NCBI GenBank assembly: GCA_038065455.1
Contig: JBBTQX010000004.1
Span: forward strand, 5,157-69,156
Reading direction: 5' to 3'
Length of the DNA stretch: 64,000 bases
Source of the DNA: Patescibacteria group bacterium
GTDB lineage: Bacteria > Patescibacteriota > Minisyncoccia > UBA6257 > GWB1-50-10
The position numbers and the translations under genes are program-made. Below, piece by piece: positions 2,117 through 58,981 of this stretch (position 1 is its first letter; each line of letters starts with the position of its first letter). Under the pieces are notes generated by a model. It was not told the DNA's origin. It did not search any database and worked only from the letters and a program-made list of their open reading frames with translations.

Positions 2117-2219
2117 AGTTTCAACTCACGACTGAGGAATTGAACAGAGCATATTATTATCTTTCCTTTTTCATTACTATCCATATATTTATTGAAACTA
2201 TAGGCGGGGTATCAAGCCC

Positions 2220-3233: not shown

Positions 3234-3361
3234 CCCGTTAGAAACAGGATACGCCGCTTTGGCGCATCCGTTGGGAATCAAGCGACCTCCGAGATTTGAT
3301 TTTTCTCATAATTACCTTCATTTTTATATCTTTAGAATACACCGGTTTCTAACGGGATTCA
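3231..3361. mobile_element. small element bounded by inverted repeats (copy a)
   Basis: The ends are CATCCCGTTAGAAAC ... GTTTCTAACGGGAT, a 14-bp inverted repeat. Inside, next to the left arm, is the hairpin GGATACGCC..GGCGCATCC, and the rest is AT-rich. The flanking pentamers TTCAT/TTCAT form a possible direct repeat. Confidence 0.6.
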
Positions 3362-4627: not shown

Positions 4628-6026
4628 ATATGTAATTTTTTAGTTCTTTGATTTTTACGCGTTCCTGTTTCATCGTATCGCGGTCCCGCACCGTCACGTC
4701 TTCAGTTTCCAGGCTTTCGAAATCCACCGTGATGCAGTAAGGCGTGCCGGCTTCGTCCTGCGCCCGATAGCGCTTGCCCACATTTCCCCTGTCGTCCCAC
4801 GCCACCGTGTACTCTTTCCTCAATTCTTCGTAGATTGTCCGTGCCAGTTTTACCAGCTCCAGCTTATTAGCCAGAAGCGGAAAAACCGCGGCTTTGTAGG
4901 GCGCTAATTTGGGATGTAATTTCAATACAATCCGTTTTTCCATTTCGTTGTTTTCTTTATTTGAATTTTGGGGCTTGTTTAGGATTTCGGATTTCGGATT
5001 TAGGATTTCTTCCGTATACGCATCCATTAGAAAGAAAAGGGTTGCGCGGTCTACGCCGCCCGAGGTCTCGATGATATAAGGCAGAAAGCGTTCCTTGGAT
5101 TCCTCGTCGAAATAGGTCAGATCCTGCTTGGAAAATTCCTGATGGCGCCGCACATCCCAATCGCCCCGATGGTGGATTCCCTCCATCTCCTTCCAGTCGC
5201 CTTCCGCGTTATACTCGATATCGAATGCCGCCTGGGCGTAGTGCGCCAACTGCTCGTGTTCCTTGAAACGGAGATTTTTCTTCGTCATTCCGAGGGACAG
5301 ATACCACTTCATCCGTTCTTCTTTCCAATATTCCATCCACTTCATCGATTCTTTTTTGTCCGGTTTCGTATAGAACTGCAATTCCATCTGCTCGAATTCA
5401 CGGGAGCGGAAAGTGAGTCCGCCGGGCGTTATCTCGTTCCGGAAGGCCTTGCCGACCTGGACGACGCCGAACGGGATTTTAACGCGGGTGGAATCCAGAA
5501 CATTTTTGAAATTCACGTGCACGCCCTGGGTGATTTCGCCGCGGAGATATGTCTTGAGCTTCTCTCCCTCTATTGAGCCGAGATAGGTCTCGACCATCAG
5601 ATTGAATTGCTTCGGTTCGGTTATTTCTCCGCCGCAATCGGGACATCCGCCAGCCGGCGGATTTTTCTCCAATTGGTCGGCGCGAAAACGATGGTGGCAT
5701 TTTTTGCACTCGACGAGCGGGTCGGAAAAAGAATCCAGATGGCCCGATGCCTCCCAAACCTTCGGATTCATTATTATGGCGGCATCCAGGCCCACGATAT
5801 TCTCGTGCTCCTGCGTCATGTTCTTCCAAAACTCGTTCTTGATATTCCGCTTCAATTCCGCCCCGAGCGGGCCGTAATCCCAAGTACCCGCGAGGCCGCC
5901 GTAGATTTCGGAGCCCGGATAAATAAAGCCGCGCCGCTTGGCCAGAGAAGTAATCTTCTCGAAAATATCCTTCTTTTCTTCCTTCTTCATATATGAACCT
6001 ATTGTAAACCGTAAACAACTCTTCAC
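4605..6026 (-). CDS. glyQS: glycyl-tRNA synthetase, class II (GlyQS type)
   Basis: YGGLAGTWDYGPLG and class II aaRS motifs are present. The protein contains an in-frame heptamer-repeat insertion that encodes EILNPKSEILNKP. Confidence 0.9.
   Translation of the reverse strand: MKSCLRFTIGSYMKKEEKKDIFEKITSLAKRRGFIYPGSEIYGGLAGTWDYGPLGAELKRNIKNEFWKNMTQEHENIVGLDAAIIMNPKVWEASGHLDSFSDPLVECKKCHHRFRADQLEKNPPAGGCPDCGGEITEPKQFNLMVETYLGSIEGEKLKTYLRGEITQGVHVNFKNVLDSTRVKIPFGVVQVGKAFRNEITPGGLTFRSREFEQMELQFYTKPDKKESMKWMEYWKEERMKWYLSLGMTKKNLRFKEHEQLAHYAQAAFDIEYNAEGDWKEMEGIHHRGDWDVRRHQEFSKQDLTYFDEESKERFLPYIIETSGGVDRATLFFLMDAYTEEILNPKSEILNKPQNSNKENNEMEKRIVLKLHPKLAPYKAAVFPLLANKLELVKLARTIYEELRKEYTVAWDDRGNVGKRYRAQDEAGTPYCITVDFESLETEDVTVRDRDTMKQERVKIKELKNYIYEKYQKN
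4974..5009. repeat. tandem heptanucleotide repeat (GGATTTC/GGATTTA, 4 units) inside the glyQS coding sequence
   Basis: The + strand reads aggatttcggatttcggatttaggattt. On the coding strand this is GAAATCC units. Confidence 0.85.
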
Positions 6027-10330: not shown

Positions 10331-11437
10331 ATGAAGATACTCGCAATCGAAACGTCCTGCGATGAAACCGCGCTCGCGCTTCTCAAAGCAAGCGGGGGCT
10401 TGCGCGCTCCGAAATTTAAAGTCATTAAGAATCTGGTCTCTTCCCAGATAGAAGTGCATCGGCCCTGGGGTGGCGTCGTGCCGAACCTCGCCAAACGAGA
10501 ACACATTAAAAATTTGCCGATTGTGTTTGAGCAAATTTTTTCAAATCCTAAATACCGATTTCATCGAGTATCCTCGACAAAGTCGGGACAAATTCAAAAT
10601 TCTAAAATCCAAATTCCAAAAATTGATCTGCTGGCCGTAACAGTGGGACCGGGACTGGAGCCGGCACTTTGGACCGGCGTCGAATTCGCAAAAGAATTGA
10701 AAAAAAATATTTTTCCGAAAGTTCCGCTAATCGGCGCAAACCATTTGGAGGGACACCTATACAGTTTTTTGCTATCGCAAAAAACTGCAAATCCTAAATC
10801 CAAAATCCTAAATCCTAAAATATTTCCCGCAATTGCGCTTATAGCAAGCGGGGGTCATACCATTCTTCTCAAGATGGAATCACTCATAAAATGGAAAAAA
10901 TTGGGTGAAACGCGGGATGACGCGGTGGGCGAGGCTTTCGATAAAGCGGCAAGAATACTCGGCCTTCCCTACCCTGGCGGACCGGAAATTCAGAAGCTCG
11001 CAGCTAACGGCAATCCCGAAGCCGTCGCCTTCCCTCGTCCGATGATTTACGACAATTCGCCGACTGGCAAATATGAATTCAGTTTCTCTGGTTTGAAAAC
11101 TTCCGTCCTTTATTATCTGCGGGATAATCCGAAAGCCGACAAAGCGAATGTAGCCGCCTCATTCCAGAAAGCTGCGGTGGACGTTCTGATATCGAAAACC
11201 GCCCGCGCCGTTCGGGAATTTAAGGCGAAATCGGTAATGCTTTCGGGCGGCGTCGCGGCCAACGCGTATCTTAGAGACAGACTGCGAGAGGCAAGCGACA
11301 AGATGGGTGTAAATTTCCTGGTGCCGCCGATGGATTTCAATACCGATAACGCCGTGATGATCGCGGCCGCGGCCTATATCCAAAATCTGCGCAAAAAGAA
11401 ATACGCCATTCGCGCCCAAGGGAATTTGAATTTATAA
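10331..11437 (+). CDS. tsaD: tRNA N6-adenosine threonylcarbamoyltransferase TsaD (Kae1/Gcp family)
   Basis: MKILAIETSCDETALAL, LIASGGHT and GVAANAYLR are all present. Two low-complexity heptamer-repeat insertions are also present. Confidence 0.9.
   Translation: MKILAIETSCDETALALLKASGGLRAPKFKVIKNLVSSQIEVHRPWGGVVPNLAKREHIKNLPIVFEQIFSNPKYRFHRVSSTKSGQIQNSKIQIPKIDLLAVTVGPGLEPALWTGVEFAKELKKNIFPKVPLIGANHLEGHLYSFLLSQKTANPKSKILNPKIFPAIALIASGGHTILLKMESLIKWKKLGETRDDAVGEAFDKAARILGLPYPGGPEIQKLAANGNPEAVAFPRPMIYDNSPTGKYEFSFSGLKTSVLYYLRDNPKADKANVAASFQKAAVDVLISKTARAVREFKAKSVMLSGGVAANAYLRDRLREASDKMGVNFLVPPMDFNTDNAVMIAAAAYIQNLRKKKYAIRAQGNLNL
10589..10623. repeat. degenerate heptamer repeat (AAATTCA/AAAATCC ...) in tsaD
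   Basis: The sequence is aaattcaaaattctaaaatccaaattccaaaaatt. It encodes QIQNSKIQIPK. Confidence 0.7.
10789..10816. repeat. heptamer repeat AAATCCT/AAATCCA, 4 units, in tsaD
   Basis: The sequence is aaatcctaaatccaaaatcctaaatcct. It encodes ANPKSKILNPK. Confidence 0.85.
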
Positions 11438-11444
11438 TTGGAAT

Positions 11445-13709
11445 ATGAACGCTGATTTTTCAAAGCCCTATGACCCGAAGATAACCGAAGAAAAAATATA
11501 CCAGCTTTGGCTTGATTCCGGCTATTTCAATCCGGACAACCTGCCTGCGCAGGCAGGCCTGCCTGTCGCAAAAATCAAAAATTCAAAAATTAAAAATTAC
11601 GTGGTATATATGCCCCTCCCGAACGTGACGGGCACGCTCCATATGGGCCACGCCTTGAACAACACCATTCAGGATATTCTCATCCGTTATCATCGGATGA
11701 AGGGATATAAAACGCTCTGGCTCCCCGGCACAGACCACGCCGGCATCGCCACGCAGTACGTGGTGGAAAAAGACCTGCGAAAACAAAATATTTCCCGTTT
11801 CGAACTCGGCCGGGAAAAATTCGTGGAGAAGGTCTGGGAATGGAAGAAAAAATATGGCGACGCGATCTTAAACCAGCTCAAAAAAATTGGCATCTCGGCC
11901 GATTGGTCCCGCACGCGCTTCACGATGGACGAAGCCTATAGCCAAGATGTTTTAAAAGTCTTCGTTCATTACTACGAGAAGGGCTGGCTTTATCGCGGAC
12001 TCCGCACCGTGAACTGGTGCCCGAAGGATGGCACAAGCCTCTCCGAGCTGGAACTGGAATACGAGGATACCGAAACCAAACTCTGGTATATCAACTATCC
12101 GCTTACGGATAGTAAATCCGAAATCCGAAATCCGAAATCCGAATTCATAACAGTGGCGACAACGAGACCCGAAACGATGCTGGGCGATACCGCGATTGCC
12201 GTGAATCCCGCCGACAAGAGATACAAGCATCTTATCGGAAAGACCGTCGTCCTTCCGATTCAAAATCGAGAGATACCGATTGTGGGCGATATCGCGATAG
12301 ACCCTAAGTTCGGCACGGGCGCGGTCAAGGTGACGCCGGCCCACGATATTCTCGATTTCGAAATCGGCCAACGGCACAAACTGGAAACGATTCAGGTAAT
12401 AGACGAACGGGCCAAAATGACGGTGATAGCCGGAAAGTATGCCGGACTAAAAGCCGTTGAAGCCCGCGAAAAAATCGTGAACGACCTCAAAGAAATGGGG
12501 CTTCTGGTAAAAGAAGAAAAATATCAAACCCGCGTCGCGAAGTGCTACCGTTGCGGCACGATTATTGAGCCTATCCCATCCAATCAATGGTTTTTGAAGA
12601 TGGATAAATTGGGAGCGATGGCGAAGCAGGCCGTGAAATCCAAAAAAGTGAGAATTCAGCCGAAAAATTTCGAGAAAACCTACTTGAATTGGCTTGAAAA
12701 CGTCCGCGACTGGTCGGTCTCCCGCCAAATTTGGTGGGGACACCGGTTGCCGGTTTGGTTTCACGAGCCGAAGTGCGTTCCCAAAAAGGGCCGCGAAAAG
12801 GATTCCGCCAAGTGCGAGGAGATGGTGGTTTCGCTCACCGAACCGGAGTGTAAATATTGCGAAGGGAAATATATCCAATCGGAAGACGTGCTTGATACCT
12901 GGTTTTCCTCCGCTCTTTGGCCATTTGCCGGGCTTTCTAAAGAAGATGCAGAAAAATATTATCCCGGAAACGTCCTCGTAACCGCCCGCGACATCATTAA
13001 TTTATGGGTCGCGCGGATGATCTTCTCCGGCTTAGAATTCAAGAAAAAGGTTCCCTTCACTGATGTCTTCATTAACGGCACCATCCTTGCCAAGGACGGC
13101 CGGCGAATGTCCAAAAGCCTCGGCACTGGCATTGACCCGCTGAATTACATCGGACTGCATGGAGCGGACGCGACACGTTTCGCTATCATCTGGCAGGCCT
13201 CCGGCCAGGATATCCGCTGGGACGAGGCGGCCGTCATGGCCGGCCGGAAATTCTGCAATAAAATCTGGAACGCATCCCGCTTTGTTATAGAACAAAGCGG
13301 AAATCCGAAATCCGAAATCCGAAATCCGAAACCTCGAACGGCAGCGGATAAAAAGATTCTTAAGAAGCTCGCGGCGGTGAAAAAACAAACCGGAAAAAAC
13401 ATAGAAAAATTCGAGTTCTCGAAAGCGCTCCACGATATTTACGATTTCTTCTGGCATGAGTTCTGCGACATTTACATCGAGGAGACAAAAAAAATTCACC
13501 CCGTTAGAAATAGCCCGCCCCAAGGCCCGGAGGGCGCGCGCCGCGCGGGCGAGATTTCTAACGGGGCAGGAGGAAATTCGGCAGAAATATTGATGTATGT
13601 ATTAAAAGAATCCCTTAAAATGCTCCATCCATTCATGCCATTCATCACGGAAGCGATCTATGGAAACATGGCCGAAAAAAATGGGCTTTTAATGGTTGAA
13701 AAATGGTAG
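11445..13709 (+). CDS. valS: valyl-tRNA synthetase (C-terminally short)
   Basis: PNVTGTLHMGHAL is the HIGH region, DGRRMSKSLG is the KMSKS motif, and LHPFMPFITE is present. The protein is 754 aa. It contains two GAAATCC repeat insertions and a 69-bp element inserted in frame. Confidence 0.9.
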   Translation: MNADFSKPYDPKITEEKIYQLWLDSGYFNPDNLPAQAGLPVAKIKNSKIKNYVVYMPLPNVTGTLHMGHALNNTIQDILIRYHRMKGYKTLWLPGTDHAGIATQYVVEKDLRKQNISRFELGREKFVEKVWEWKKKYGDAILNQLKKIGISADWSRTRFTMDEAYSQDVLKVFVHYYEKGWLYRGLRTVNWCPKDGTSLSELELEYEDTETKLWYINYPLTDSKSEIRNPKSEFITVATTRPETMLGDTAIAVNPADKRYKHLIGKTVVLPIQNREIPIVGDIAIDPKFGTGAVKVTPAHDILDFEIGQRHKLETIQVIDERAKMTVIAGKYAGLKAVEAREKIVNDLKEMGLLVKEEKYQTRVAKCYRCGTIIEPIPSNQWFLKMDKLGAMAKQAVKSKKVRIQPKNFEKTYLNWLENVRDWSVSRQIWWGHRLPVWFHEPKCVPKKGREKDSAKCEEMVVSLTEPECKYCEGKYIQSEDVLDTWFSSALWPFAGLSKEDAEKYYPGNVLVTARDIINLWVARMIFSGLEFKKKVPFTDVFINGTILAKDGRRMSKSLGTGIDPLNYIGLHGADATRFAIIWQASGQDIRWDEAAVMAGRKFCNKIWNASRFVIEQSGNPKSEIRNPKPRTAADKKILKKLAAVKKQTGKNIEKFEFSKALHDIYDFFWHEFCDIYIEETKKIHPVRNSPPQGPEGARRAGEISNGAGGNSAEILMYVLKESLKMLHPFMPFITEAIYGNMAEKNGLLMVEKW
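11541..11603. repeat. GC palindrome plus AAAAATN heptamer run in the valS N-terminal region
   Basis: The GC palindrome is cctgcctgcgcaggcaggcctgcctg. It is followed by aaaaatcaaaaattcaaaaattaaaaatt, which encodes AKIKNSKIKN. Confidence 0.6.
12114..12141. repeat. tandem heptamer AAATCCG x4 in valS
   Basis: The sequence is aaatccgaaatccgaaatccgaaatccg. It encodes KSEIRNPKSE. Confidence 0.9.
13301..13328. repeat. tandem heptamer AAATCCG x4 in valS
   Basis: The sequence is aaatccgaaatccgaaatccgaaatccg. It encodes NPKSEIRNPK. Confidence 0.9.
13498..13566. mobile_element. small element bounded by inverted repeats (copy d), inserted in frame in valS
   Basis: The ends are CCCCGTTAGAAAT ... ATTTCTAACGGGG, a 13-bp inverted repeat. 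The core is GC-rich. At 69 bp it adds 23 codons (PVRNSPPQGPEGARRAGEISNGA). Confidence 0.6.
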
Positions 13710-15323: not shown

Positions 15324-16703
15324 CTAACGGCGCTTGAAAATTTTCTTGCAATAGAGATTGAATTTTTCTCCCCTATCGAACTCGTTCTTGAACTTCTCAA
15401 AGCTGGCCGCCCCCGGCGAAAAAATAATCATCCATTTCGTCTTTTTCTCTTTTTTTTCATAAATCACTTGGGTGGTATACTTAAGTATACCACCTAGATC
15501 TTCGTAGAAGTTTATTTTTTTGTTTTTAGAATATCCGATTTTCTCGAGCGCCGCGATCATTTTTTTGGTGGCGCTGCCGTTCAAAAGGAAAAGGTTTTCC
15601 GGTTTCACGAAGCGCTTTACTGTTTTCGCCCATCCGCCATATTCCAAGTTTTTATCCGTTCCACCGGAGATGAGGATAATATTTTCTTTTCCGAACCTCC
15701 GAAGAGCGGCTATCGTCCCATCGGGCGAGGTCGCCGTCGTGTCATTCACCACCGTAAGCTTCGGCGATTTGAAGACGATCTCCTCCCGGAATTTTATTCG
15801 CGGCAAACGCCAGGCCGCTCGTCGGAGAGCCGAAACGGGCACGCCGGCAAGTTTGGCGGCGAGATATGCGGCTTTGAAATTCTCCAGATTATGCGGACCG
15901 GAGATTTTGGAGAATTTCTTTTCATTTATACCGGTTTTTGCGGATGAATAGAGCATCTTTGAGCCGACCCTCCAATTGGAGAATTTTTTAAGGAAAAATT
16001 TCGTCCATTCGTTCCGGCAATTCAGAATCAAAAAATCTCCCTTCTTCTGGTTTTTGAATATATTCGCCTTCGCAGAAGCATAGCTGACAAGCGTCCGGTA
16101 GCGGTTCATATGGTCACGGTAGATATTGGTGATTACAGCCACTTCCGGACCCCGGCCGGATTGGCTTAAAAGCTCCAGGTGCCAGGACGAAAGTTCCGCG
16201 ACGACGGGCGACTTGCCGTCTAAGCCGTCCAGAATGCCGAGCAGGGGCTGGTCCGAGGAGTTGCCGGTAAGTTTCGCCTTCGGAAACTTTTGCTTCAATA
16301 AAAACAATATCCAGTTCACGGTTGTCGTCTTCCCCCGGGTGCCGGTCACGGCGATAATCGGATTTTTGCAGTATCGGAAGAACAAGCTCGCTTCATTCTC
16401 CAAACGCGCACCGTGTTTTTTGGCAATGGCGAGATACTTGCTCTCGCGCGGCACGGCTGGATTCACCACGATAATTTTATTGGTCTTGAAATCAGCTCTG
16501 CGGTGTTTGCCCAAAACGAAAATAATTTTTTTCGCCGCCGCGCCCAATTTATTTATCGAGTCTTTTAATTCCCCGCGCGAACGCAAATCCGTCACGGTCA
16601 CATTCGCGCCGTGCAGAATGAGCCACTTCGTGGTCGCAATCCCCCCGCCGAGCAGACCCAGGCCCATTACCAGTACTTTTTTGTTTTTTAACTCAATGGC
16701 CAT
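15324..16703 (-). CDS. murD: UDP-N-acetylmuramoylalanine--D-glutamate ligase MurD
   Basis: KKVLVMGLGLLGGG is the Rossmann-type N-terminus and IAVTGTRGKTTT is the P-loop. The C-terminus carries a 24-bp palindrome within the coding sequence. Confidence 0.85.
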   Translation of the reverse strand: MAIELKNKKVLVMGLGLLGGGIATTKWLILHGANVTVTDLRSRGELKDSINKLGAAAKKIIFVLGKHRRADFKTNKIIVVNPAVPRESKYLAIAKKHGARLENEASLFFRYCKNPIIAVTGTRGKTTTVNWILFLLKQKFPKAKLTGNSSDQPLLGILDGLDGKSPVVAELSSWHLELLSQSGRGPEVAVITNIYRDHMNRYRTLVSYASAKANIFKNQKKGDFLILNCRNEWTKFFLKKFSNWRVGSKMLYSSAKTGINEKKFSKISGPHNLENFKAAYLAAKLAGVPVSALRRAAWRLPRIKFREEIVFKSPKLTVVNDTTATSPDGTIAALRRFGKENIILISGGTDKNLEYGGWAKTVKRFVKPENLFLLNGSATKKMIAALEKIGYSKNKKINFYEDLGGILKYTTQVIYEKKEKKTKWMIIFSPGAASFEKFKNEFDRGEKFNLYCKKIFKRR

Positions 16704-28054: not shown

Positions 28055-29275
28055 CTATTTAATAGGGAAATCCTTGCAGATTCGGCCTACTTCTTTTTTG
28101 AGGATTTCCGGTTTTTTCTCTTTCAAAAGCGCTTCGGAAATGAGCCGCCCGATTATTTTCATCTGCCTTTCTTTTAAACCGCGGGTCGTGAGCGCGGCCG
28201 TTCCCAGCCGGATGCCCGACGGGCTCATTGGCGTGCGTGTGTCGTGCGGAATGGTGTTTTTGTTCGCGATAATACCGATATCTTCCAGAAGCTCGCTGGT
28301 TTCCTGTCCGCTCAAACCGCGCGCCCAAGTATCCAAAAGTATAAGATGCGAATCCGTGCCGCCCGAAACTATTTTCCAATGAAGTTTTTTCAGAGTCTCC
28401 GCGAGAGCTTTGGCATTTCTGACCGTCTGCTTCGCATACTTCCTAAAGCCAGGTTCGGCCGCTTCTTTCAGAGCCACGGCTGTCGCGGCGATCTGATTGC
28501 CGTGAGGGCCGCCCTGAAGGCCGGGGAAAACGCTTTTATCTATCGCTTCCGAGAATTTATTGCGCGAGAAGATGAGCGCCGCTCTCGGTCCGCGCAAAGT
28601 TTTGTGCATTGTGGTCGTAACCACGTCGGCCGAAGAAAATGGCGAAGGATAAGCGCCGCCCGCGATCAAGCCCGCGAAATGGGACATATCCACCATAAAA
28701 ATCGCACCGGAAGATTTGGCGATTCTCTGGAATTTTTTGAAATCGATTATCCGAGAGTAAGCGGTGTAGCCGGCCACAATTAGTTTCGGCCGTTCTTTTT
28801 TCGCGATTCCGGAAACTTCGCCGTAATCGAGTTGGCCACTGCCTTTTTGGACAACGTAAGGAATAATCTTCCACAACTTTCCCGTCACGCTCACCTTGTG
28901 GCCATGGGTAAGGTGGCCGCCCATATCCAAACGCAACCCCATAATCTTTTCTCCGACCGGAACGAGCGCGAGATAAACGGCGAGATTGGCGGGGGAGCCG
29001 GAATAAGGCTGGATATTCACGGACCATTCTTTGGGTGAAAGCCGGAAAAGCTTCAAGGCGCGCTCTTTCGTAAGGTCTTCCAGCTTGTCCATCACTTCGT
29101 TCCCGCCATAATACCTCATTTTAGAGTAGCCTTCCGCGTATTTATTGGTAAAAACGGAGCCTAGGGCAGCCAAAACATCGTCGGAGACGTAATTTTCCGA
29201 AGCAATCAGATTCAAAGTGTCGTTTTGCCGCTTAGCCTCGCTGTTTATGAGATTTTCGACGATTTTATCGTTCAT
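28055..29275 (-). CDS. glyA: serine hydroxymethyltransferase
   Basis: LIASENYVSDDVLAALGSVFTNKYAEGY is present. The PLP-binding region reads TTTMHKTLRGPR. Confidence 0.95.
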   Translation of the reverse strand: MNDKIVENLINSEAKRQNDTLNLIASENYVSDDVLAALGSVFTNKYAEGYSKMRYYGGNEVMDKLEDLTKERALKLFRLSPKEWSVNIQPYSGSPANLAVYLALVPVGEKIMGLRLDMGGHLTHGHKVSVTGKLWKIIPYVVQKGSGQLDYGEVSGIAKKERPKLIVAGYTAYSRIIDFKKFQRIAKSSGAIFMVDMSHFAGLIAGGAYPSPFSSADVVTTTMHKTLRGPRAALIFSRNKFSEAIDKSVFPGLQGGPHGNQIAATAVALKEAAEPGFRKYAKQTVRNAKALAETLKKLHWKIVSGGTDSHLILLDTWARGLSGQETSELLEDIGIIANKNTIPHDTRTPMSPSGIRLGTAALTTRGLKERQMKIIGRLISEALLKEKKPEILKKEVGRICKDFPIK

Positions 29276-29317: not shown

Positions 29318-29347
29318 AAAGCGGGTGGTATACTCAAGTATACCACC
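29318..29347 (-). terminator. palindrome GGTGGTATACTCAAGTATACCACC plus T-run, acting as terminator for the ORF at 29378..29665
   Basis: On the minus strand the palindrome is followed by CGCTTTTTCTTTG. A near-identical palindrome lies at 15471-15494 inside murD. Confidence 0.5.
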
Positions 29348-29377
29348 CTGTTTTTTAATCAAAGTAATCAGTCCGAA

Positions 29378-31025: not shown

Positions 31026-31032
31026 TGGATTG

Positions 31033-31106
31033 TCGGCCCGGAAGGACTCGAACCTTCGAATAGACGAGGTATAAGCTCGTTGCATTAGCCGCTATGCTAC
31101 GGGCCG
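31033..31106 (-). tRNA. tRNA with anticodon UAU, putative tRNA-Ile2(UAU) reading AUA
   Basis: The cloverleaf has acceptor CGGCCCG/CGGGCCG, D-arm GCAT-AGCGGCTA-ATGC, anticodon arm ACGAG-CTTATAC-CTCGT, a 6-nt variable loop, T-arm GAAGG-TTCGAGT-CCTTC and discriminator A. It directly abuts the ftsH stop codon. Confidence 0.65.
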
Positions 31107-45385: not shown

Positions 45386-45469
45386 GGGCAGGTGGCGAAA
45401 TTGGCAGACGCACCAACTTTAGGAGTTGGCGATCGCAAGGTCTTGTGGGTTCAAGTCCCACCCTGCCCA
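45386..45469 (+). tRNA. tRNA-Leu (anticodon UAG), type II with long variable arm
   Basis: The acceptor stem is GGGCAGG/CCTGCCC. The anticodon arm is CCAAC-TTTAGGA-GTTGG. The long variable arm is CGATCGCAAGGTCTT. The T-arm is GTGGG-TTCAAGT-CCCAC. Confidence 0.85.
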
Positions 45470-45496
45470 CTAGATAATTATTAATTCTCCGTATTG

Positions 45497-45530
45497 GGGC
45501 CTGAAACCGATTATTTATCGGTTTGTTTTT
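45497..45530 (+). terminator. rho-independent terminator after tRNA-Leu
   Basis: The hairpin AAACCGAT-tattt-ATCGGTTT is followed by GTTTTTGTT. Confidence 0.55.
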
Positions 45531-45550
45531 GTTCCTATGTTTTATCATTA

Positions 45551-45584
45551 CTATCCTATTTATCCGACCGGATAAATAGGATAG
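45551..45584. promoter_or_regulatory. 15-4-15 perfect palindrome CTATCCTATTTATCC-gacc-GGATAAATAGGATAG (operator-like)
   Basis: It lies downstream of the PaaX-like gene at 45644..46231. A related ATCCTATC-ggaaa-GATAGGAT palindrome lies upstream of the same gene. Confidence 0.5.
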
Positions 45585-45643
45585 TAAGAAGACAAAATAA
45601 AAAACGTGGAAATAACAATATTGGAAATCGGCAAAAACGAATC

Positions 45644-46231
45644 TTAGTTGATTTGTTTTAAACTTCCCGCCTTGCTGATTTCAAAAATTTCGACAAAATC
45701 AACCATATTAAACTTATCCAAATCATCGATGAATTGTTTTGGGATTTTTACTTTGCCAACCCATACGCTTTTCTGAATCATTTTCAAGTCCAGGTTTTTT
45801 AAAACTTCTCTAATCCAGGCTCGCTTTGATCTTTCTTTTTCCGGAATATCGAAAACAACAATGGTAAATTGACCCTTTTCTTTCGAATAGCTCATAGGCC
45901 GAGGCAATCTTTTTATATTATCCAATTTCAATTTTTCAAGTTTTTCTTTTCCTTTTCCGGTAATGGAGAAGAAATTTGTCTTGTTTCTCGCTTCAACTTT
46001 TATAAGGCCGTCTTCTTTTAGTTTATAAAGAAGGTTGTAATATTTTTGTTTAATTTCCGCTTCTTTTTTTCTTCCGGCTCTATCGTCTTTTATTTTATAT
46101 GTCTCGTGTTCCATTCTACCAATGGAGGCACCGTAACCGGCATTCAAGAAAGCATTGAAAAAATCAAAACTATTAATTGTCATATCTCCTAAAACCTCCA
46201 AAACCTTCAATAAAATATCTCCTTTAGCCAT
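45644..46231 (-). CDS. PaaX-like transcriptional regulator family protein
   Basis: FTIVVFDIPEKERSKRAWIREVLKNLDLKMIQKSVWVG resembles the PaaX C-terminal domain pattern W.G.W.lv..ipe..R..R..lr..L...Gf..lq.SVw. It is a paralog of the gene at 55294..55863. Confidence 0.5.
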   Translation of the reverse strand: MAKGDILLKVLEVLGDMTINSFDFFNAFLNAGYGASIGRMEHETYKIKDDRAGRKKEAEIKQKYYNLLYKLKEDGLIKVEARNKTNFFSITGKGKEKLEKLKLDNIKRLPRPMSYSKEKGQFTIVVFDIPEKERSKRAWIREVLKNLDLKMIQKSVWVGKVKIPKQFIDDLDKFNMVDFVEIFEISKAGSLKQIN

Positions 46232-46254
46232 ATTTTTATTATACTATCTTATTA

Positions 46255-46275
46255 ATCCTATCGGAAAGATAGGAT
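46255..46275. promoter_or_regulatory. palindrome ATCCTATC-ggaaa-GATAGGAT overlapping the -35 region of the PaaX-like gene promoter
   Basis: It is followed on the minus strand by TAGTATAAT and an AAGGAG Shine-Dalgarno before the ATG at 46231. Confidence 0.5.
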
Positions 46276-46316
46276 AGTGATTCTATTAATAAAATAAATA
46301 GAAGAATATCTTCTTA

Positions 46317-47210
46317 CTATTTGCGGCGGCGGGCGTGGAAGGTCTGATGGATTTCCTTGAGCTCCTTATTGGTCAGGTGGGTATAGACCTGGGTGGTCGA
46401 AATATTGGCGTGGCCCAGAAGCGACTGGACCGAACGCAGGTCGGCGCCGTTTATAAGAAGGTCGGTGGCAAACGAGTGTCGGATTTGATGGGGGTGGACT
46501 TTTTTCGGGATGCCGGCTTTTTTGGCGTAGAAAGAAGTTAATCTCTGAACGGAACGGGGATTTATCCGGCCGATTACCTTGTTCTTTTTGGTCAGGCTCG
46601 CGAAAAGGTATTCCTCGGTATCGCTTCTTTTTTCCAAATAGTTTTTAATGGATTTTTTGGCCCCCTCCGACAGAAAAACCACCCGGAGCTTGTCGCCTTT
46701 TCCGCGCACGGATATTTCGCCCCGCTCCAAATCCAGATAGCGGGGGAGGGCGCAAAGTTCGGAGAGCCGGAGACCGGTCGAGAAAAATGTTTCCAAAATT
46801 GCCCGGTCCCGAAGCGAGCGCAAATCCTTCCCGTCGGGAGCCGAAACCAGGCGCTCCAATTCTTTATAGTCCAGGGTTTCAATGTCGCGTCGGGAAACCC
46901 TCGGCAACTCTATTTTTTCCGGAGCGAGCACTTTTATATCGCGCTTCAGGAGATATTTCAAAAGATTGCGAATGGCGATTACGTAATAACTCTGGGTATT
47001 TTTTTTCAAATCTTTGCGGGAAAGATTTACCCGGAAGTCGCGCACCGCATCCTCCGTAATATCCTTAATGGAACGGATTTTCTGGTTTTCCAGAAAAAAT
47101 TTCAGGTAGCGCCCATAGTTCTCGCGCGTCTTCCGCGAGCGGTTTCTTTCCACCTCCAGATAGTCCAGATAATCCTTGAGATATTTTTCCGCTTCGGTCA
47201 TTTGTTTCAT
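46317..47210 (-). CDS. tyrosine recombinase (XerC/XerD-like phage-integrase family)
   Basis: The C-terminal catalytic motifs are present (HQIRHSFATDLL, LLGHANISTTQVYTHL). The N-terminus has a SAM-like domain. It is 297 aa. Confidence 0.8.
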   Translation of the reverse strand: MKQMTEAEKYLKDYLDYLEVERNRSRKTRENYGRYLKFFLENQKIRSIKDITEDAVRDFRVNLSRKDLKKNTQSYYVIAIRNLLKYLLKRDIKVLAPEKIELPRVSRRDIETLDYKELERLVSAPDGKDLRSLRDRAILETFFSTGLRLSELCALPRYLDLERGEISVRGKGDKLRVVFLSEGAKKSIKNYLEKRSDTEEYLFASLTKKNKVIGRINPRSVQRLTSFYAKKAGIPKKVHPHQIRHSFATDLLINGADLRSVQSLLGHANISTTQVYTHLTNKELKEIHQTFHARRRK

Positions 47211-54398: not shown

Positions 54399-55196
54399 AT
54401 GGAAAAATCAAAGAAAAGCCTCGGTCAGAATTTCCTGTTAAACAAGGAGAAAATAAAAGAGATTGTTGGGGCGCTGGACATAAAATCCGGCGATGTGGTG
54501 GTTGAAATCGGTCCCGGACACGGGGAGCTGACGAAAGAACTGATAACTAATGACAAATTACGAATAATCGCAATTGAGAAAGACGAGGGGTTGGTGGAAA
54601 AACTTGGAGATGAAATGAAGAAACATGGAGATAAAATCGAAATTATAGCCGGCGATGCGTTAAAAATGCTTCCGGACGTAGTTTCGGGTTATGGGTCAAA
54701 AACAAGTTATAAGTTAATTGGAAATATTCCCTATTACATCACCGGCTTCCTTTTGAGAACGATAAGCGAATTGGAGCACAAGCCGAAAATCACCGTTCTC
54801 ACGGTCCAAAAAGAGGTGGCCAAGCGTATCTGCGGAGAAATGAATTTGCTCTCCGCGAGTGTCCGATACTGGGCGGAACCGGAAATCATCGGTATTATTC
54901 CCAAGTCGGATTTTTCTCCCCAACCCAAAGTGGACTCGGCGATTATCAGGTTAAAAACCATAAACAAAAAACGAGAAACGGGGGATGAGGCGAAAAGTGC
55001 CGAGAATTATCATAAATTCATAAAAATTCTCTTCAAACAACCCCGAAAAACCATATTGAACAATTTGCTTGGAATGGGGAAAAACAAGGTGGAAATTGAG
55101 AAAATCCTAAAAGAAAATAGTATAGACCATAACAGCCGGGCCCAAAATCTCAATGTGTCTCAAATAAGAGAACTGGCTCGGATTTTTACCGCTTAA
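54399..55196 (+). CDS. rsmA: 16S rRNA (adenine1518-N6/adenine1519-N6)-dimethyltransferase RsmA/KsgA
   Basis: SLGQNFLLNKE is present. The SAM-binding motif is VVEIGPGHGELT. NIPYYIT is present. Confidence 0.9.
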   Translation: MEKSKKSLGQNFLLNKEKIKEIVGALDIKSGDVVVEIGPGHGELTKELITNDKLRIIAIEKDEGLVEKLGDEMKKHGDKIEIIAGDALKMLPDVVSGYGSKTSYKLIGNIPYYITGFLLRTISELEHKPKITVLTVQKEVAKRICGEMNLLSASVRYWAEPEIIGIIPKSDFSPQPKVDSAIIRLKTINKKRETGDEAKSAENYHKFIKILFKQPRKTILNNLLGMGKNKVEIEKILKENSIDHNSRAQNLNVSQIRELARIFTA

Positions 55197-55257
55197 AAAC
55201 AAGCAAAAACCGTAAAAACAGAAAAATATTAGTAATTCATTATAATTTAGAATATTG

Positions 55258-55288
55258 CAAAGTTATACTGTCATGACATAATAACTTA
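55258..55288. promoter_or_regulatory. imperfect palindrome CAAAGTTATAcTGTCATGACAtaATAACTTaG overlapping promoter-like TATAAT/TAGAAT elements upstream of the second PaaX-like gene
   Basis: It is about 26 bp with an ATGTCATGACAT core. Its perfect twin lies downstream of the gene at 55876-55909. Confidence 0.5.
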
Positions 55289-55293
55289 GTAAA

Positions 55294-55863
55294 ATGCGAA
55301 TTAGGAGAAACTCACAACCCTATCGCCTTCTTAAATACCTTGCTATAGGCACCGGTGTTTTGACACTCTCTCTTATAGCGCCGGTAAGCGGCGCGATGCT
55401 GGTGAAAAATTTTATCCGCTATTATTTCAGGAATAAAAAGTTTCAAAAATATCGATTTCTAAATGATTTGAAAAATCTCCAAAGTAGAGAATTGGTATCG
55501 TATAAAGAGGAGGGGAGAGGAGTGGTGAAAATCACCCTTACTAAGAACGGCCGGGAGAAAATACTGCGGTACCAAATTGATGAAATAAAAATAAAAAAGC
55601 CCGCCCGCTGGGATGGGCAATGGCGGCTGATAATGTTTGATATACCGCATTACAAACGCATTGCCCGCGACGCTTTTCGGACAAAGCTGAAAAATTTGGA
55701 ATTCTATCCTATTCAGAAAAGCGTATTTATCACTCCTTATCCCTGCGAGAATGAGATAGATTTTATAGCGTCTATTTTTGATGTAAGAAAAGAGGTTCTT
55801 ATCCTTTATGTGAGCCGATTTGAAGGGGAGGAGAAATTCAAAAATCACTTCAAAATATACTAA
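55294..55863 (+). CDS. PaaX-like transcriptional regulator family protein (paralog)
   Basis: WDGQWRLIMFDIPHYKRIARDAFRTKLKNLEFYPIQKSVFITP resembles the PaaX C-terminal domain pattern. Confidence 0.5.
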   Translation: MRIRRNSQPYRLLKYLAIGTGVLTLSLIAPVSGAMLVKNFIRYYFRNKKFQKYRFLNDLKNLQSRELVSYKEEGRGVVKITLTKNGREKILRYQIDEIKIKKPARWDGQWRLIMFDIPHYKRIARDAFRTKLKNLEFYPIQKSVFITPYPCENEIDFIASIFDVRKEVLILYVSRFEGEEKFKNHFKIY

Positions 55864-55875
55864 ATATTCGCTATT

Positions 55876-55909
55876 ACAAAGTTATTATGTCATGACATAA
55901 TAACTTTGT
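55876..55909. promoter_or_regulatory. perfect 34-bp palindrome ACAAAGTTATTATGTCATGACATAATAACTTTGT
   Basis: It is read directly from the sequence and lies downstream of the PaaX-like gene. Confidence 0.5.
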
Positions 55910-56018
55910 AAAAATGTAGAAAAAAGGGAGAGGGGGAATGAAGGAGAAAGATGGTGATAGAGGAGGATGGGGAGTGGGGAGAGAGAAAGAAAAAAGGAAA
56001 AAGTGGGGGCTGTTTGAT

Positions 56019-56381
56019 TTAAAATAAACTAACTCCTGCTTTCCAGATGGTACCTTCCGCCGTAATGGGTACCGGAAGCACGCAAACCCCTCCCGGGATG
56101 GCGGTTCCCAAGACTTTCGCGCCGGGTTTAAGAATGAAATTTTCGTAAATCACGGAAACACCCGGCTGATAAAGAAAAACTCCGGGTCTAGGTTGCCCAA
56201 CCGTAATAAGAATGCCATTAGTGCAAGGAACGGCGACTAAGATATTGCCCCCGAAAGGAATGATCAGTCCTATTGCTGAAGCGAATTGAGGGAAAATAAG
56301 CATACCGACAGCAAGAAAAAAGAAAGAAAAAGAAGATATAATAAAAAACATTTTCACTCCTCTGTAAAACATGTTAGGCAT
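56019..56381 (-). CDS. hypothetical secreted or membrane-anchored protein (120 aa), Gly/Pro-rich
   Basis: The N-terminus has a hydrophobic signal or anchor segment. No recognisable motif was found. Confidence 0.4.
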   Translation of the reverse strand: MPNMFYRGVKMFFIISSFSFFFLAVGMLIFPQFASAIGLIIPFGGNILVAVPCTNGILITVGQPRPGVFLYQPGVSVIYENFILKPGAKVLGTAIPGGVCVLPVPITAEGTIWKAGVSLF

Positions 56382-56462
56382 TGTTCAAAAAGGCTTATTT
56401 AAGCCAAAAACATTATAACATCCGGCGGCAAAATATAGTATACTGATAACATCTCGAATTAT

Positions 56463-57260
56463 ATGAAAAAAAGGAAAATAATCTCCGCCATTATTTTATT
56501 GAGCGGTTTGGCATTTTTTCTGCTAATCGTCAATTCCACCGGAAAAAATCAAGAATTTCCGGCCATGGTAGCCCTGAATAAGAATAACTCTGAATCCGGT
56601 TTTGACTACCGAACCGATAAAAATCGGGACATTATCCCGAGCGCGATTTCCGGAACAAATATGTCTCCCGCGACCGACAATTTAACCGAATTGCTCGCTA
56701 AAAACATTTCCAGTGGAATTCTCACGGTAAACAGTAAACTAGTATCCGAACAAGGAACTTCTTCCATTGCCCTTCCTTCATCTAATTCGTTGGGCAACTC
56801 CATAGAGCAGTCTATCGAGCAAAATATGAAATTCCCGGTCTTCGGCTTAAAAGATATCAGAATCGGCTCTGATAATTCGCCGGAGGCCCAACTCGCTTAT
56901 TTCAACACAATCGGGGAAATATCCAAGAAAAACTTTGGGAATTTCAAAACCTCCATCGTGACAATGCTCAATAATTTAATTGAAAATAACGATTCCACCG
57001 CACTCGCCAAATACGCTAGAATTGCAAATAAACAAGTCGCTGATTTTCTTGCGCTTAAAGTCCCGGAACAACTTTCCGCTTGGCATCTACAAAACCTGAA
57101 TTTATGGCAGAAGAAATTCACGGCCTATTCCGCGATGGCTAATTTGAGTTCCGATCCGCTCAAAATGATTATCGCCTTCAAAGAGGTTCCGAATATCGTG
57201 CAGGAAACATTGAATTTGGATTCAGTGATGAAAGAAAAATATTTAAAATTGATACCATAA
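56463..57260 (+). CDS. hypothetical N-terminally anchored exported protein (265 aa)
   Basis: The signal or anchor segment reads IISAIILLSGLAFFLLIV. It lies in a T4SS-like neighbourhood. Confidence 0.45.
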   Translation: MKKRKIISAIILLSGLAFFLLIVNSTGKNQEFPAMVALNKNNSESGFDYRTDKNRDIIPSAISGTNMSPATDNLTELLAKNISSGILTVNSKLVSEQGTSSIALPSSNSLGNSIEQSIEQNMKFPVFGLKDIRIGSDNSPEAQLAYFNTIGEISKKNFGNFKTSIVTMLNNLIENNDSTALAKYARIANKQVADFLALKVPEQLSAWHLQNLNLWQKKFTAYSAMANLSSDPLKMIIAFKEVPNIVQETLNLDSVMKEKYLKLIP

Positions 57261-58981
57261 TGGATTTATTGATGAAAAAAATTATTTCTTTGGTTCTTTT
57301 AACGTCTGTTTTGGCGGGAACCGCATTAATGGTTCCTCAAAAAGCTCAAGCGGCTGATCCGATAACCTGGGCGGTTTGCGGAGCATATGAAGCAACAATA
57401 GGGAAATTGTTCGGGGCTGCTGAAGATACAGTGAGTGGAACCATATCGGGTGCTGCGAATAAAATAGTGAACAAAGTAGTGAGCATTGATGCTGTTCCAG
57501 TTTCCGATAGTGCAGTTCAAAGCGGTCAAAAAGCGCAGGTCGCGAGCGATAAAAAAACGGAATGTGAGCGTTTTGTAGCGGATGTCGCGCTTGCCGCTTT
57601 GAAAAAACGACTTTTAAATATTATGACCCAGGATGTCGTAGAGTGGATAAATAATGGGTATGGGCCAGAAGGACCTAAATTCACCCAAGACTTCGAAAAA
57701 GTTTTCACCGACGCCGGGGACCAAGCTATAGGTGATATTCTTCAAGAATATGCCTTCACTGCTCCGCTTTGTAAACCTTTTTCTTTTGATATCACTTTCC
57801 AACTCCAGCAGCCGGCTCCGCTCGCCGAAAGAGCCCAATGTACGCTCACGAGCGTCATTAAAAGCTTTGAAAGCTACCGGGACGACTTCAAGAACGGCGG
57901 CTGGATCGGCTATCAGGAGCTTCTAAAACCTCAAAACAACCAATGGGGAGTGGAGCTTCTGACTCAAAGCGAGATAACGAGCCGCACGGCTCTTAAGATA
58001 AATTCCAGCGCTCTAAAAGAAACTGTTAATGTTGGATTCGATTCTTCGGAATGCACCGGCGGATGGGATTTAATGGATAAAATAACTAAACAGCTGGCAA
58101 AAGCTGGTTCCGAAATAGACCAAAATACAATAAATTTTTATGGTCATATAAATAAGGGTGATGTTTATCATGGGAAGACTTGGGACGATCCAAAATTAGC
58201 ACCTCCTTCTCCGACGAAAAGTAGTAAAAATTTCTTTTATAGTTGTGCTGGTACCACAATCACGACACCCGGTCGGACGATTGCGGCCGCTTTGGAAAAA
58301 TCCATTCTTCCAGAATTTGATCTTATAATAAACTCAAAAGACCTTACCAATTCTCTCGCTATTATCGCCGACGCGGCTATCAATGACATTATAAAAAGAG
58401 GGGTAAGAGGAATACAGAATTTCAATAAACCCGTTCCGAAAAATCCAGAAAATGAGAAGTTTTCCGATTCCCAAAGAAACAGGGTTAATCAGGCATCCGG
58501 GGATTACGATAAAATCCAAGGGCAGATAAGCAACAGTAAAACGACAGGTGCTTATCTTGACCAGATTAATCCGGCCGCCAACACCATTCTCGCCGCCTCA
58601 TCGATTCTCAAAAATGCTTCCGATAAAAACGAAGAAGCGATAAAAACCGGTCAAGATACTCTTGCCTGTATTGCCCAATCAAATACTCACGCCGATAGAC
58701 CTGCCATTCAAGCCGCCGTGGACAAAGCGAATTTAAACCCCGTGCTCATCACCGCAAAATCAACAGAAATTAAAACTAATTCCGCTTCCATACAAACCCT
58801 TATTTCCCAAATTAACGCGGGTAATTGTGATACCTATTACCAACCTCAATCTTGCCAATCTCAAATAGATGGCAAAAGATCTGCCGCCGGACAACTTAAT
58901 ATCGACGCTAATAACCTTCTAAATTCTGTTCAAGATACACTAACCAATCTGGAAGAATTAAAAAAGAAAGTTTGCTCTTAA
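57260..58981 (+). CDS. hypothetical secreted protein (573 aa)
   Basis: The signal peptide ends ..AQA-AD. The protein is Gln/Asn/Thr-rich and shows no enzymatic motif. Confidence 0.45.
   Translation: MDLLMKKIISLVLLTSVLAGTALMVPQKAQAADPITWAVCGAYEATIGKLFGAAEDTVSGTISGAANKIVNKVVSIDAVPVSDSAVQSGQKAQVASDKKTECERFVADVALAALKKRLLNIMTQDVVEWINNGYGPEGPKFTQDFEKVFTDAGDQAIGDILQEYAFTAPLCKPFSFDITFQLQQPAPLAERAQCTLTSVIKSFESYRDDFKNGGWIGYQELLKPQNNQWGVELLTQSEITSRTALKINSSALKETVNVGFDSSECTGGWDLMDKITKQLAKAGSEIDQNTINFYGHINKGDVYHGKTWDDPKLAPPSPTKSSKNFFYSCAGTTITTPGRTIAAALEKSILPEFDLIINSKDLTNSLAIIADAAINDIIKRGVRGIQNFNKPVPKNPENEKFSDSQRNRVNQASGDYDKIQGQISNSKTTGAYLDQINPAANTILAASSILKNASDKNEEAIKTGQDTLACIAQSNTHADRPAIQAAVDKANLNPVLITAKSTEIKTNSASIQTLISQINAGNCDTYYQPQSCQSQIDGKRSAAGQLNIDANNLLNSVQDTLTNLEELKKKVCS

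Follow-up and report, generated by a model that had tools for sequence, protein, structure and literature searches.

Mini-PaaX genes of Patescibacteria are bracketed by matched palindromic sites and are probably autorepressor modules

Introduction

Why should a small regulator gene carry the same long palindrome at both ends, once ahead of its start codon and again just past its stop codon? The question is raised twice by one stretch of Patescibacteria DNA, the 64,000 nucleotides at positions 5,157 to 69,156 of contig JBBTQX010000004.1 (assembly GCA_038065455.1), which we refer to as the window. It contains two cassettes, p1 and p2, each composed of a gene for a short PaaX-like protein, an upstream site (U) and a downstream site (D). 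An earlier note on this DNA offered two explanations: either the genes are autoregulated, each carrying a matched pair of operator-like sites, or the cassettes are mobile and their palindromes serve as recombination or attachment sites. To our knowledge, almost nothing is known of transcriptional regulation in the Patescibacteria (the Candidate Phyla Radiation, or CPR, group), because these organisms are uncultured. In the large family described here, from ultra-small, uncultured groundwater bacteria, the sequence alone shows a regulator next to its putative operator. We argue that each cassette is probably an autorepressor module, with one operator over its own promoter and an auxiliary operator downstream.

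Results

Two regulator genes and their four sites

The p1 gene (45644..46231, minus strand) encodes a protein of 195 residues in which a PadR-like winged helix-turn-helix (wHTH) is joined to a Cas2-like PaaX_M domain, an architecture that we call mini-PaaX. Its downstream site (45548..45587) is a perfect 19-2-19 palindrome, TTACTATCCTATTTATCCG-AC-CGGATAAATAGGATAGTAA, centred 76 nt past the stop codon; on the gene strand it presents the outer boxes ACTATCC/GGATAGT and the core CCGG-TCGG, where, here and below, the hyphen within a core marks the dyad. The upstream site (46241..46280), centred 30 nt ahead of the start codon, is a degenerate copy that retains the outer boxes (ACTATCC ... AGATAGT) around the core CCGA-TAGG. 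The smaller palindrome ATCCTATC-ggaaa-GATAGGAT (46255-46275), which the earlier note had placed over the p1 promoter, is present within U as a secondary feature, but the informative comparison is that of U with D, which form a direct repeat of one 40-bp site with 84% identity over 37 nt (46242-46278). A predicted -10 hexamer, TATAAT (46238..46243, minus strand), was read from the sequence and abuts the right outer box of U. As the ATG follows after only 6 nt, the p1 mRNA is expected to be leaderless; the same layout, GATAGTATAAT, recurs in the orthologs L183 and L184 and across the family. A generic promoter scan did not call the p1 promoter, because its -35 element is weak.

The p2 gene (55294..55863, plus strand) encodes a 189-residue paralog with the same two domains and a more hydrophobic N-terminal region. 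Its downstream site (55874..55911), centred 29 nt past the stop codon, is a perfect 38-bp palindrome with the core GTCA-TGAC; its upstream site (55254..55293), centred 21 nt ahead of the start codon, is an imperfect copy of it, and the two are 90% identical over 42 nt (55253-55294). The promoter scan places a promoter-like pair inside U, with TTGCAA (55255-55260) and CATAAT (55277-55282) separated by 16 nt. Both downstream sites lie between convergent genes.

All four palindromes were thus found where they had been reported, with perfect arms downstream as described, although both downstream elements proved to be longer than first given (19-2-19 rather than 15-4-15 for p1, and 38 bp rather than 34 bp for p2). 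The cassettes are also AT-rich relative to their flanks, as had been noted; for p1, the GC content is 0.30-0.34 over the cassette versus 0.45-0.53 in the flanks. Within the window, the two downstream sites are the only palindromes with perfect arms of at least 18 nt. No further copies of the p1 or p2 palindromes were found in the window, either at up to 3 mismatches per 28 nt (shuffled expectation 0.00) or at up to 6 mismatches over 22 informative positions, so that neither is a generic repeat there. A weak tblastn match at 28404-28598, considered as a third paralog, lies within glyA and is spurious.

Two small observations belong beside p2 D. A purine-rich stretch, GGGAGAGGGGGAATGAAGGAG..., follows the site at 55925-56005, where one pipeline calls a 29-residue open reading frame (ORF); it is missing from the allele of a conspecific genome, L099, described below. 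In addition, several public contigs stop inside p2 D, which marks an assembly break.

The proteins combine a winged helix with a Cas2-fold domain

Both proteins match the Pfam family PaaX_M (PF20803) well above its cutoff of 24 bits, p1 with 47.1 bits (E 2.6e-12) and p2 with 73.1 bits (E 2e-20). Residues 43-102 of p1 also give weak PadR/wHTH Pfam matches; the only other match above threshold is a partial one to Cas2. No Pfam match at E<=1 lies beyond PaaX_M; the proteins stop directly after the Cas2-like domain and lack the C-terminal PaaX domain, which we take as the effector-binding region. The two proteins share 34% identity over 100 residues, and their family profiles are collinear from residue 1 (hhalign 98%). 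The AlphaFold2 model of p1 (mean pLDDT, a per-residue confidence score, 76.6) has E. coli PaaX (8a39) as its top Foldseek match, over 192 columns; its N-terminal part resembles PadR-like winged helices and the N-terminal domain of PaaX, and its C-terminal part resembles Cas2. The p2 model (pLDDT 69) is confident only in the Cas2-like half, with low confidence in the N-terminal domain, and the best structural matches of its C-terminal domain are Cas2, Rv0674 and PaaX. A sequence search of the PDB with the family profile gave no match. The p1 and p2 proteins are therefore paralogous mini-PaaX proteins, with a winged helix and a Cas2-fold domain and without the C-terminal domain. As regards domains and fold, the description "PaaX-like" is apt, and the architecture is one of DNA-binding proteins, but p1 and p2 are not PaaX orthologs: they score only 19.7 and 20.6 bits against the PaaX equivalog model TIGR02277, whose cutoff is 264.55, and the C-terminal domain is missing.

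The relationship to Cas2 deserves separate comment, as members of this family are often named "CRISPR-associated endonuclease Cas2" in public records. The Cas2 model TIGR01573 matches p1 with 27.5 bits against a cutoff of 24.5, covering only model positions 2-43 of 96, and p2 with 17.9 bits, below the cutoff; PADLOC likewise returns only partial Cas2 matches. The aspartate of the Cas2-type FDIP motif is invariant, and several acidic residues are conserved with it (C-E-x-E in the p2 family). No CRISPR array is present in the 64-kb window, and no cas1 lies near p1 or p2, whose neighbours are xer, tRNA-Leu, rsmA and hypothetical genes. A reading of each cassette as a miniature CRISPR array can be ruled out, as the repeats number only two, what would be the "spacer" is the gene, and cas1 is absent. 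The Cas2 annotation of family members is a misnomer.

Pairing of the sites is a property of the whole family

We compared two sets of homologous loci, 80 loci of p2 relatives from Patescibacteria genomes (73 compared) and 80 loci of p1 relatives from metagenomes (L103-L182; 76 compared). For each locus, the 215 nt before the start codon were compared with the 215 nt after the stop codon and the best shared ungapped score was recorded; the flank of another locus and shifted windows within the same locus served as controls. In the p2 set the median of the best shared score is 21, and 60 of 73 loci score above 12; in the p1 set, 75 of 76 do. Neither control exceeded 12 in the p2 set, and no control locus reached 16. 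A gene bracketed by two matching, locus-specific sites is thus found at 135 of 149 homologous Patescibacteria loci, and the shared element is always a palindrome of ~40 bp whose arms vary from locus to locus. The autoregulation half of the earlier proposal is consequently supported, and extends from two genes to an entire family in which promoter overlap is mainly an upstream property. That family is large: the p1 branch alone comprises 640 to ~4,300 clusters at 50% identity.

The anatomy of the site emerges from 104 p2-set sites aligned on the dyad. Positions ±1-4 form a core that is conserved family-wide as RCnA-TnGY (for example GCCA-TGGC, GCGA-TCGC and GTCA-TGAC; in the p1 set it is mostly ACGA-TCGT). 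Positions ±5-8 are variable, with the arms pairing in only 60-75% of sites, positions ±9-11 are A/T, and positions ±12-18 hold the locus-specific boxes, with pairing in 81-96% of sites; beyond ±19 the symmetry decays. Identity between U and D follows the same profile as arm pairing, with peaks at ±1-4 and ±10-17 and a trough at ±5-8, which fits selection on protein contacts rather than a recent duplication or a continuous hairpin. At the same time, many sites have perfect arms of 19-26 nt, including the ±5-8 positions that are unconstrained on average. Among p2-family sites the asymmetric core GCTA-TCGC occurs 11 times in the gene orientation and never reversed.

This geometry has a precedent. 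E. coli PaaX recognizes the operator TGATTC-N27-GAATCA and, by sterically hindering RNA polymerase, keeps its own promoter repressed (PMC9493321, a review of the phenylacetic acid pathway). The mini-PaaX sites span 36-40 bp with half-sites at ±12-18, a spacing as wide as that of the PaaX operator, and the wide spacing may thus be the geometry proper to this protein architecture. The major grooves at ±15 and ±5 and the minor grooves at 0 and ±10 would face one side of the helix, which fits a single dimer lying over the whole site.

Upstream and downstream copies differ in promoter content

Sigma-70-like -35/-10 pairs scoring at least 9 of 12 were used to locate promoter elements at the sites. 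They overlap 33 of 60 upstream versus 7 of 60 downstream sites in the p1 set, and 20 of 52 versus 2 of 52 in the p2 set. In the modal p1-set layout the -35 element, TTGACG, lies at -7 and the -10 at +16/17, so that transcription would start downstream of U; since the end of the -10 is often only 7-13 nt from the start codon, leaderless or short-leader mRNAs are expected. Downstream sites are slightly more symmetric than upstream ones (Wilcoxon p = 0.007). In the window, stable hairpins are predicted only at the D sites (-27.9 and -18.4 kcal/mol, z -7.9 and -6.1, versus z -1.9 and -1.6 for the U sites); what U and D share is therefore a sequence read as DNA and not a structure.

To what, then, does the downstream copy belong? 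Its neighbour is co-directional at 30 loci and convergent at 22 in the p2 set, and co-directional at 28 and convergent at 34 in the p1 set. An operator for the next gene can be ruled out, since ~42-55% of the neighbours are convergent and the distance from site to neighbour is independent of orientation; D lies 18-60 nt from the stop codon of its own gene whatever the neighbour, and it therefore belongs to the cassette. An intrinsic terminator can also be ruled out, since T-runs are not commoner after downstream than after upstream sites (8/60 and 11/52), and none follows either D site of the window. The spacing between U and D has a median of 681 bp and no visible helical phasing, so that it lends no support to phase-dependent looping.

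The two sites of a cassette change together, and orthologs remain in place

The p1 orthologs L183 (67% identity) and L184 (62%) keep the order PNPase-NYN-S15-Xer-p1-tRNA-Leu(tag), and with it the ACTATCC/GGATAG boxes, the core, and the -10 beside the right box; positions ±5-9 drift. For p2, a closer comparison is provided by L099, which belongs to the same species as the window, as its comM and M23 genes are 98.5-98.9% identical. The L099 p2 allele has only 79% DNA and 84.5% protein identity to that of the window, and its core has changed from GTCA-TGAC to GCCA-TGGC in both U and D. This is a concerted change: the right arm of U retains CATAAT, and its left arm follows the changes seen in D.

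Specificity appears to reside largely in the outer boxes. Paralogs within one genome have different boxes, which points to orthogonal regulator-operator pairs. A putative recognition-helix motif, Y[YH]N[LFIT], accompanies an ACTAT box at 15 of 16 loci versus 5 of 37 otherwise (Fisher 3.5e-8, not corrected for phylogeny). A Mantel-type correlation between protein-domain identity and site identity is weak (rho 0.1-0.2), with only a slight edge for the recognition-helix region, and we place no weight on it. At L029, two adjacent paralogs have outer boxes in common and their sites differ only at ±5-7, symmetrically, which, together with the orientation bias of GCTA-TCGC, suggests that inner positions add to specificity in some lineages.

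Additional sites are uncommon, a third site within 3 kb being found at only 3 of 60 p1-set loci. Nevertheless, at L025 a third cognate site precedes a tsaE-like operon by 29 nt, L029 has six sites that enclose four genes, one of them the second paralog (positions 1686-5796), and L021 has tandem copies of its site. The same site before other genes in some genomes indicates a small regulon. A different kind of repetition is seen at L046, where an exact 86-nt duplication (1473-1559 and 2955-3041) takes in the upstream site and the initial codons of the regulator, and is either a pseudogene fragment or an incomplete second copy.

Neighbourhood, exchange and turnover of the cassettes

The p1 cassette is flanked by two conserved neighbours. 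On its right-hand side lies the convergent tRNA-Leu(tag) gene (45386..45470, plus strand). Directly upstream of p1 is a gene for a Xer-like tyrosine recombinase (46317..47210, minus strand; Pfam Phage_integrase and a SAM-like domain), which is a conserved neighbour of the p1 orthologs and the commonest neighbour across the p1 family, where it is immediately adjacent at 24 of ~76 loci (duplicates not removed), either upstream and co-directional or downstream and convergent. This neighbourhood may reflect inherited synteny or a functional link. A dif-like Xer site can be ruled out for the palindromes, as the core-adjacent arms are not conserved between orthologs.

The L001/L186 genome differs from the window by 9-24% in the flanking genes (up to 24% in rsmA, and ~9-15% right around p1); the p1 cassette itself (window 45441-46345) differs at only 1 of 905 bp. 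This near-identical stretch reaches 107 and 64 bp past the two sites, and the 5' half of tRNA-Leu shows 7 differences from the same genome. The contigs with near-identical p1 were picked by exact protein match, a sample biased toward identical copies, and the region is generally mosaic; we therefore treat the p1 identity only as a sign of homologous exchange, and as such it indicates that the p1 segment was recently exchanged by homologous recombination. Past the 5' end of tRNA-Leu, the region from 45385 down to 44943/43306 varies between strains: L003 carries an rve-family insertion sequence there, and L001 and L002 have Band_7-like and other genes in place of the 193-aa and 295-aa ORFs of the window.

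The p2 cassette lies in a block (55222..56430, edges approximate) that also holds a convergent 120-aa ORF (56019-56381, minus strand) and is present in the window and in L099. Three related genomes, L186, L187 and L188, lack both p2 and the 120-aa ORF; there, comM-M23-rsmA is followed, after a gap of 16-51 nt, by the gene found beyond the cassette in the window, and none of these empty loci retains a solo palindrome. The insertion or deletion (~55222-56430) starts ~27 nt before U and ends ~515 bp after D, so that the edges of this presence/absence polymorphism are not at the palindromes. The surrounding region (54399-58981) is itself a mosaic when compared with L099, with ~99% nucleotide identity in comM and M23, 81% in rsmA, 79% in p2, 97% in the 120-aa ORF and 65-70% in the next two hypothetical genes, and its hypervariable genes adjoin a TrbL-like gene of a type IV secretion system.

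No relatives of these genes were found in IMG/VR viral contigs and there were no PHROG matches; a viral origin was accordingly rejected. Taken with the comparisons above, this leaves little of the suggestion that the cassettes are mobile units with the palindromes as their attachment sites. Orthologs with 62-84% amino acid identity stay syntenic with boxes and core kept, the conservation profile of the site is that of a protein footprint rather than a crossover site, and the right edge of the p2 block takes in a second gene. The conserved arms beside a central crossover that characterize recombinase sites are not seen here; instead, ±5-9 are the most variable positions and the boxes differ from cassette to cassette.

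Discussion

Overall, we believe that the most probable account of these cassettes is autorepression by a regulator that has an operator over its own promoter and an auxiliary operator after its stop codon. The domain architecture of the protein, the anatomy of the sites, their pairing across the family, the overlap with promoter elements at U only, the conservation in syntenic orthologs and the concerted change of both sites in L099 all point in this direction. The protein would be a truncated repressor of the PaaX type, a PadR-like wHTH with a Cas2-fold dimerisation domain and no effector-binding C-terminal domain, whose dimer would bind the ~40-bp dyad-symmetric operator. The two recognition helices would contact the outer boxes at ±12-18, which are specific to each cassette; the A/T tract at ±9-11 would serve the wings or DNA bending; and the Cas2-like dimer would sit over the family-conserved core RCnA-TnGY. 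Since both the -35 and the -10 of the promoter, which would give a short-leader or leaderless mRNA, overlap the U operator, binding there should shut off the regulator's own gene. The downstream operator would be auxiliary and promoter-free, and could strengthen repression by looping to U over ~650 bp; alternatively, a regulator bound there could act as a roadblock that insulates the gene from neighbouring transcription. We regard looping and insulation as about equally likely.

Several observations sit uneasily with autorepression, and should be weighed against it. The arms are often perfect for 19-26 nt, a degree of symmetry beyond what a dimeric repressor requires, which may point to some further process or a structural role. 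The U-D spacing is not helically phased. The invariant FDIP aspartate and the acidic residues conserved with it leave room for catalysis, and the covariation of protein and site is quantitatively weak. Most family members have no visible target besides their own gene, and a regulator of itself alone is odd. Finally, the cassettes show signs of exchange or turnover, and their alleles turn over fast.

The excess perfection of the arms, the invariant acidic residues, the scarcity of targets and the turnover of alleles lead us to keep in view a second, unlikely explanation, in which the cassettes are selfish or conflict modules. Here the Cas2-like domain would be a nuclease that nicks or cuts the core once the wHTH has docked on the boxes, either in a homing-like gene conversion or as part of a toxin-regulator fusion, and the proteins would be immunity-like, orthogonal repressor/nucleases that guard or propagate their own locus. 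In addition to the acidic residues, the great length of the recognition site (~40 bp), the co-conversion-like tracts around the p1 cassette, the strong divergence of p2 between strains that are otherwise 99% identical in comM and M23, the several orthogonal paralogs per genome, and perfect palindromes commoner than operators require would all fit. Were it true, site-directed gene conversion would have left its traces in the perfect palindromes, in the cross-lineage identity of p1 and in the divergence of p2 between strains. We nonetheless give it little weight, as both sites of a cassette are complete, whereas a homing target would be split by the gene, the motifs in question are also part of a non-catalytic fold signature common to PaaX, the Cas2 matches in PADLOC are only partial, synteny is kept over the long term, and, since both cassettes lie in a generally mosaic region, exchange is not specific to them.

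The remaining explanations concern the palindromes more than the protein, and each is less probable still. The sites might function as RNA hairpins, acting as terminators, as stabilisers or as structures in the 5' and 3' untranslated regions, and a Cas2-like RNase might bind or cut them; some relatives of Cas2 and VapD are RNases, and the D sites are both very stable when folded and situated where a terminator would be. The U sites are not significantly structured, however, and with the predicted -10 at or beyond their right edge they are mostly not transcribed. Pairing is moreover weakest at ±5-8, beside the would-be loop, T-runs are no commoner after D than after U, and the only Rfam match is the tRNA, all of which makes a role in RNA improbable. 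Marginally more doubtful again is the mobile cassette, in which the palindromes would be recombination or attachment sites (of lox/dif type, or like integron attC or pdif) at which a recombinase excises and integrates the unit. The direct repeat around a single gene, the indifference to the orientation of neighbouring genes, the lack of synteny among most homologs, the Xer-like recombinase beside p1 and many of its relatives, the absence of p2 from three related genomes and the near-identity of p1 within diverged flanks would be natural on such a model. Against it, the core-adjacent positions ±5-9, expected to be the arms of a tyrosine recombinase site, are the least conserved, and the conserved boxes lie 12-18 bp out and differ between cassettes, so that no common host recombinase could use them. 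Nor do the edges favour it: the p2 block ends away from its sites, includes another gene and leaves no solo site behind, and the near-identical p1 tract runs past both sites in contigs whose selection favoured identical copies. Orthologs, moreover, stay in place across 62-84% protein identity, and viral relatives are lacking. Least credible, to the point where we give it almost no weight, is a generic dispersed repeat of the REP (repetitive extragenic palindrome) or MITE (miniature inverted-repeat transposable element) kind lying by chance next to genes, or palindromes arising by chance. A few loci do have extra or tandem copies (L021, L029, L026, L056), but within the window no site type is found away from its own cassette, third copies nearby are rare in the p1 family, site sequence tracks the adjacent gene across ~135 loci where controls never exceed 12, and the chance expectation for arms of such length is essentially zero.

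Returning to autorepression, the closest known relative is PaaX (PDB 8A39, 3L09), which in E. coli and Pseudomonas is a repressor responsive to phenylacetyl-CoA and in which an N-terminal winged helix likewise precedes a Cas2-like PaaX_M domain. PaaX is an autorepressor with an operator of inverted half-sites ~27 bp apart; the sites here match that geometry, and U overlaps a predicted promoter, as the operator of an autorepressor would. Unlike PaaX, which has ~310 residues, the mini-PaaX proteins have ~190 and, lacking the C-terminal domain, no evident effector pocket; no paa genes occur among the neighbours whose Pfam families were examined; the dyad core is conserved family-wide and a putative second operator follows the stop codon; and the family is confined to Patescibacteria, with many orthogonal paralogs. 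Cas2 shares with the C-terminal domain its ferredoxin-like fold and the FDIP and QKSV(F/W) motifs, but the hidden Markov model matches cover only beta1-alpha1, and here the domain is fused to a DNA-binding domain with neither cas1 nor a CRISPR array nearby. The PadR regulators resemble the p1 winged helix (4esf, 6abt, LmrR) and are small dimeric autoregulators acting on palindromes, as mini-PaaX proteins may be; the latter, to judge from the models, would dimerise through the Cas2-fold domain and not through the C-terminal helix of PadR, and their half-sites are much further apart.

The bracketing layout also recalls systems of other kinds. Lambda CI at OL-OR, DeoR, and LacI at O1-O2 combine an operator over a promoter with a second cognate operator hundreds of bp away, and in lambda the two operator regions flank the repressor gene and the immunity types are orthogonal. 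In the mini-PaaX cassettes, unlike these, single sites bracket one small gene exactly, looping is putative, and no outward-facing promoters are evident at most downstream sites. The RAYT genes are likewise single-copy and flanked on both sides by their own cognate palindromes, the REPs; RAYTs, however, are HUH-Y1 transposase-like and REPs number tens to hundreds of copies, whereas mini-PaaX is a wHTH with a Cas2 fold, without HUH or Y1, and usually has two sites, in the window and at the loci compared. In the literature on PaaX in connection with Cas2, the winged helix, Patescibacteria or the Candidate Phyla Radiation, we found neither the family nor its bracketing layout described, and PaaX and PadR regulators are not known to pair an operator over the promoter with a second one directly past the stop codon.

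Regardless of which role the downstream operator plays, the family has some general interest. A conserved core combined with a variable specificity box amounts to a natural set of orthogonal repressor-operator pairs, and offers a route to a recognition code, and the layout itself poses the question of looping or insulation in a compact form. There are practical consequences as well. Many family members are misnamed as Cas2 in public records, and public contigs often end in the perfect palindromes or hold only the regulator gene (L013-L018, and many contigs of ~1 kb). As the palindromes break short-read assemblies, the cassettes are likely to be under-represented in genome bins, and often to be left on contigs of ~1 kb.

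Other features of the window

One other repeated palindrome, GGTGGTATACTYAAGTATACCACC, occurs twice, at 15471-15494 within a murD-like ORF and at 29323-29348 upstream of glyA, and its core bears no relation to the core of the mini-PaaX sites. Short tandem arrays of the heptamer AAATCCG/GAAATCC or its complement, with 4-5 copies each, lie at four places (4978-5009, 10789-10819, 12114-12143 and 13300-13331) and may be binding sites of another factor. Finally, ARAGORN predicts a tRNA-Ile with the anticodon TAT, which is uncommon for bacterial tRNA-Ile, at 31032-31106, adjoining tRNA-Val(tac).

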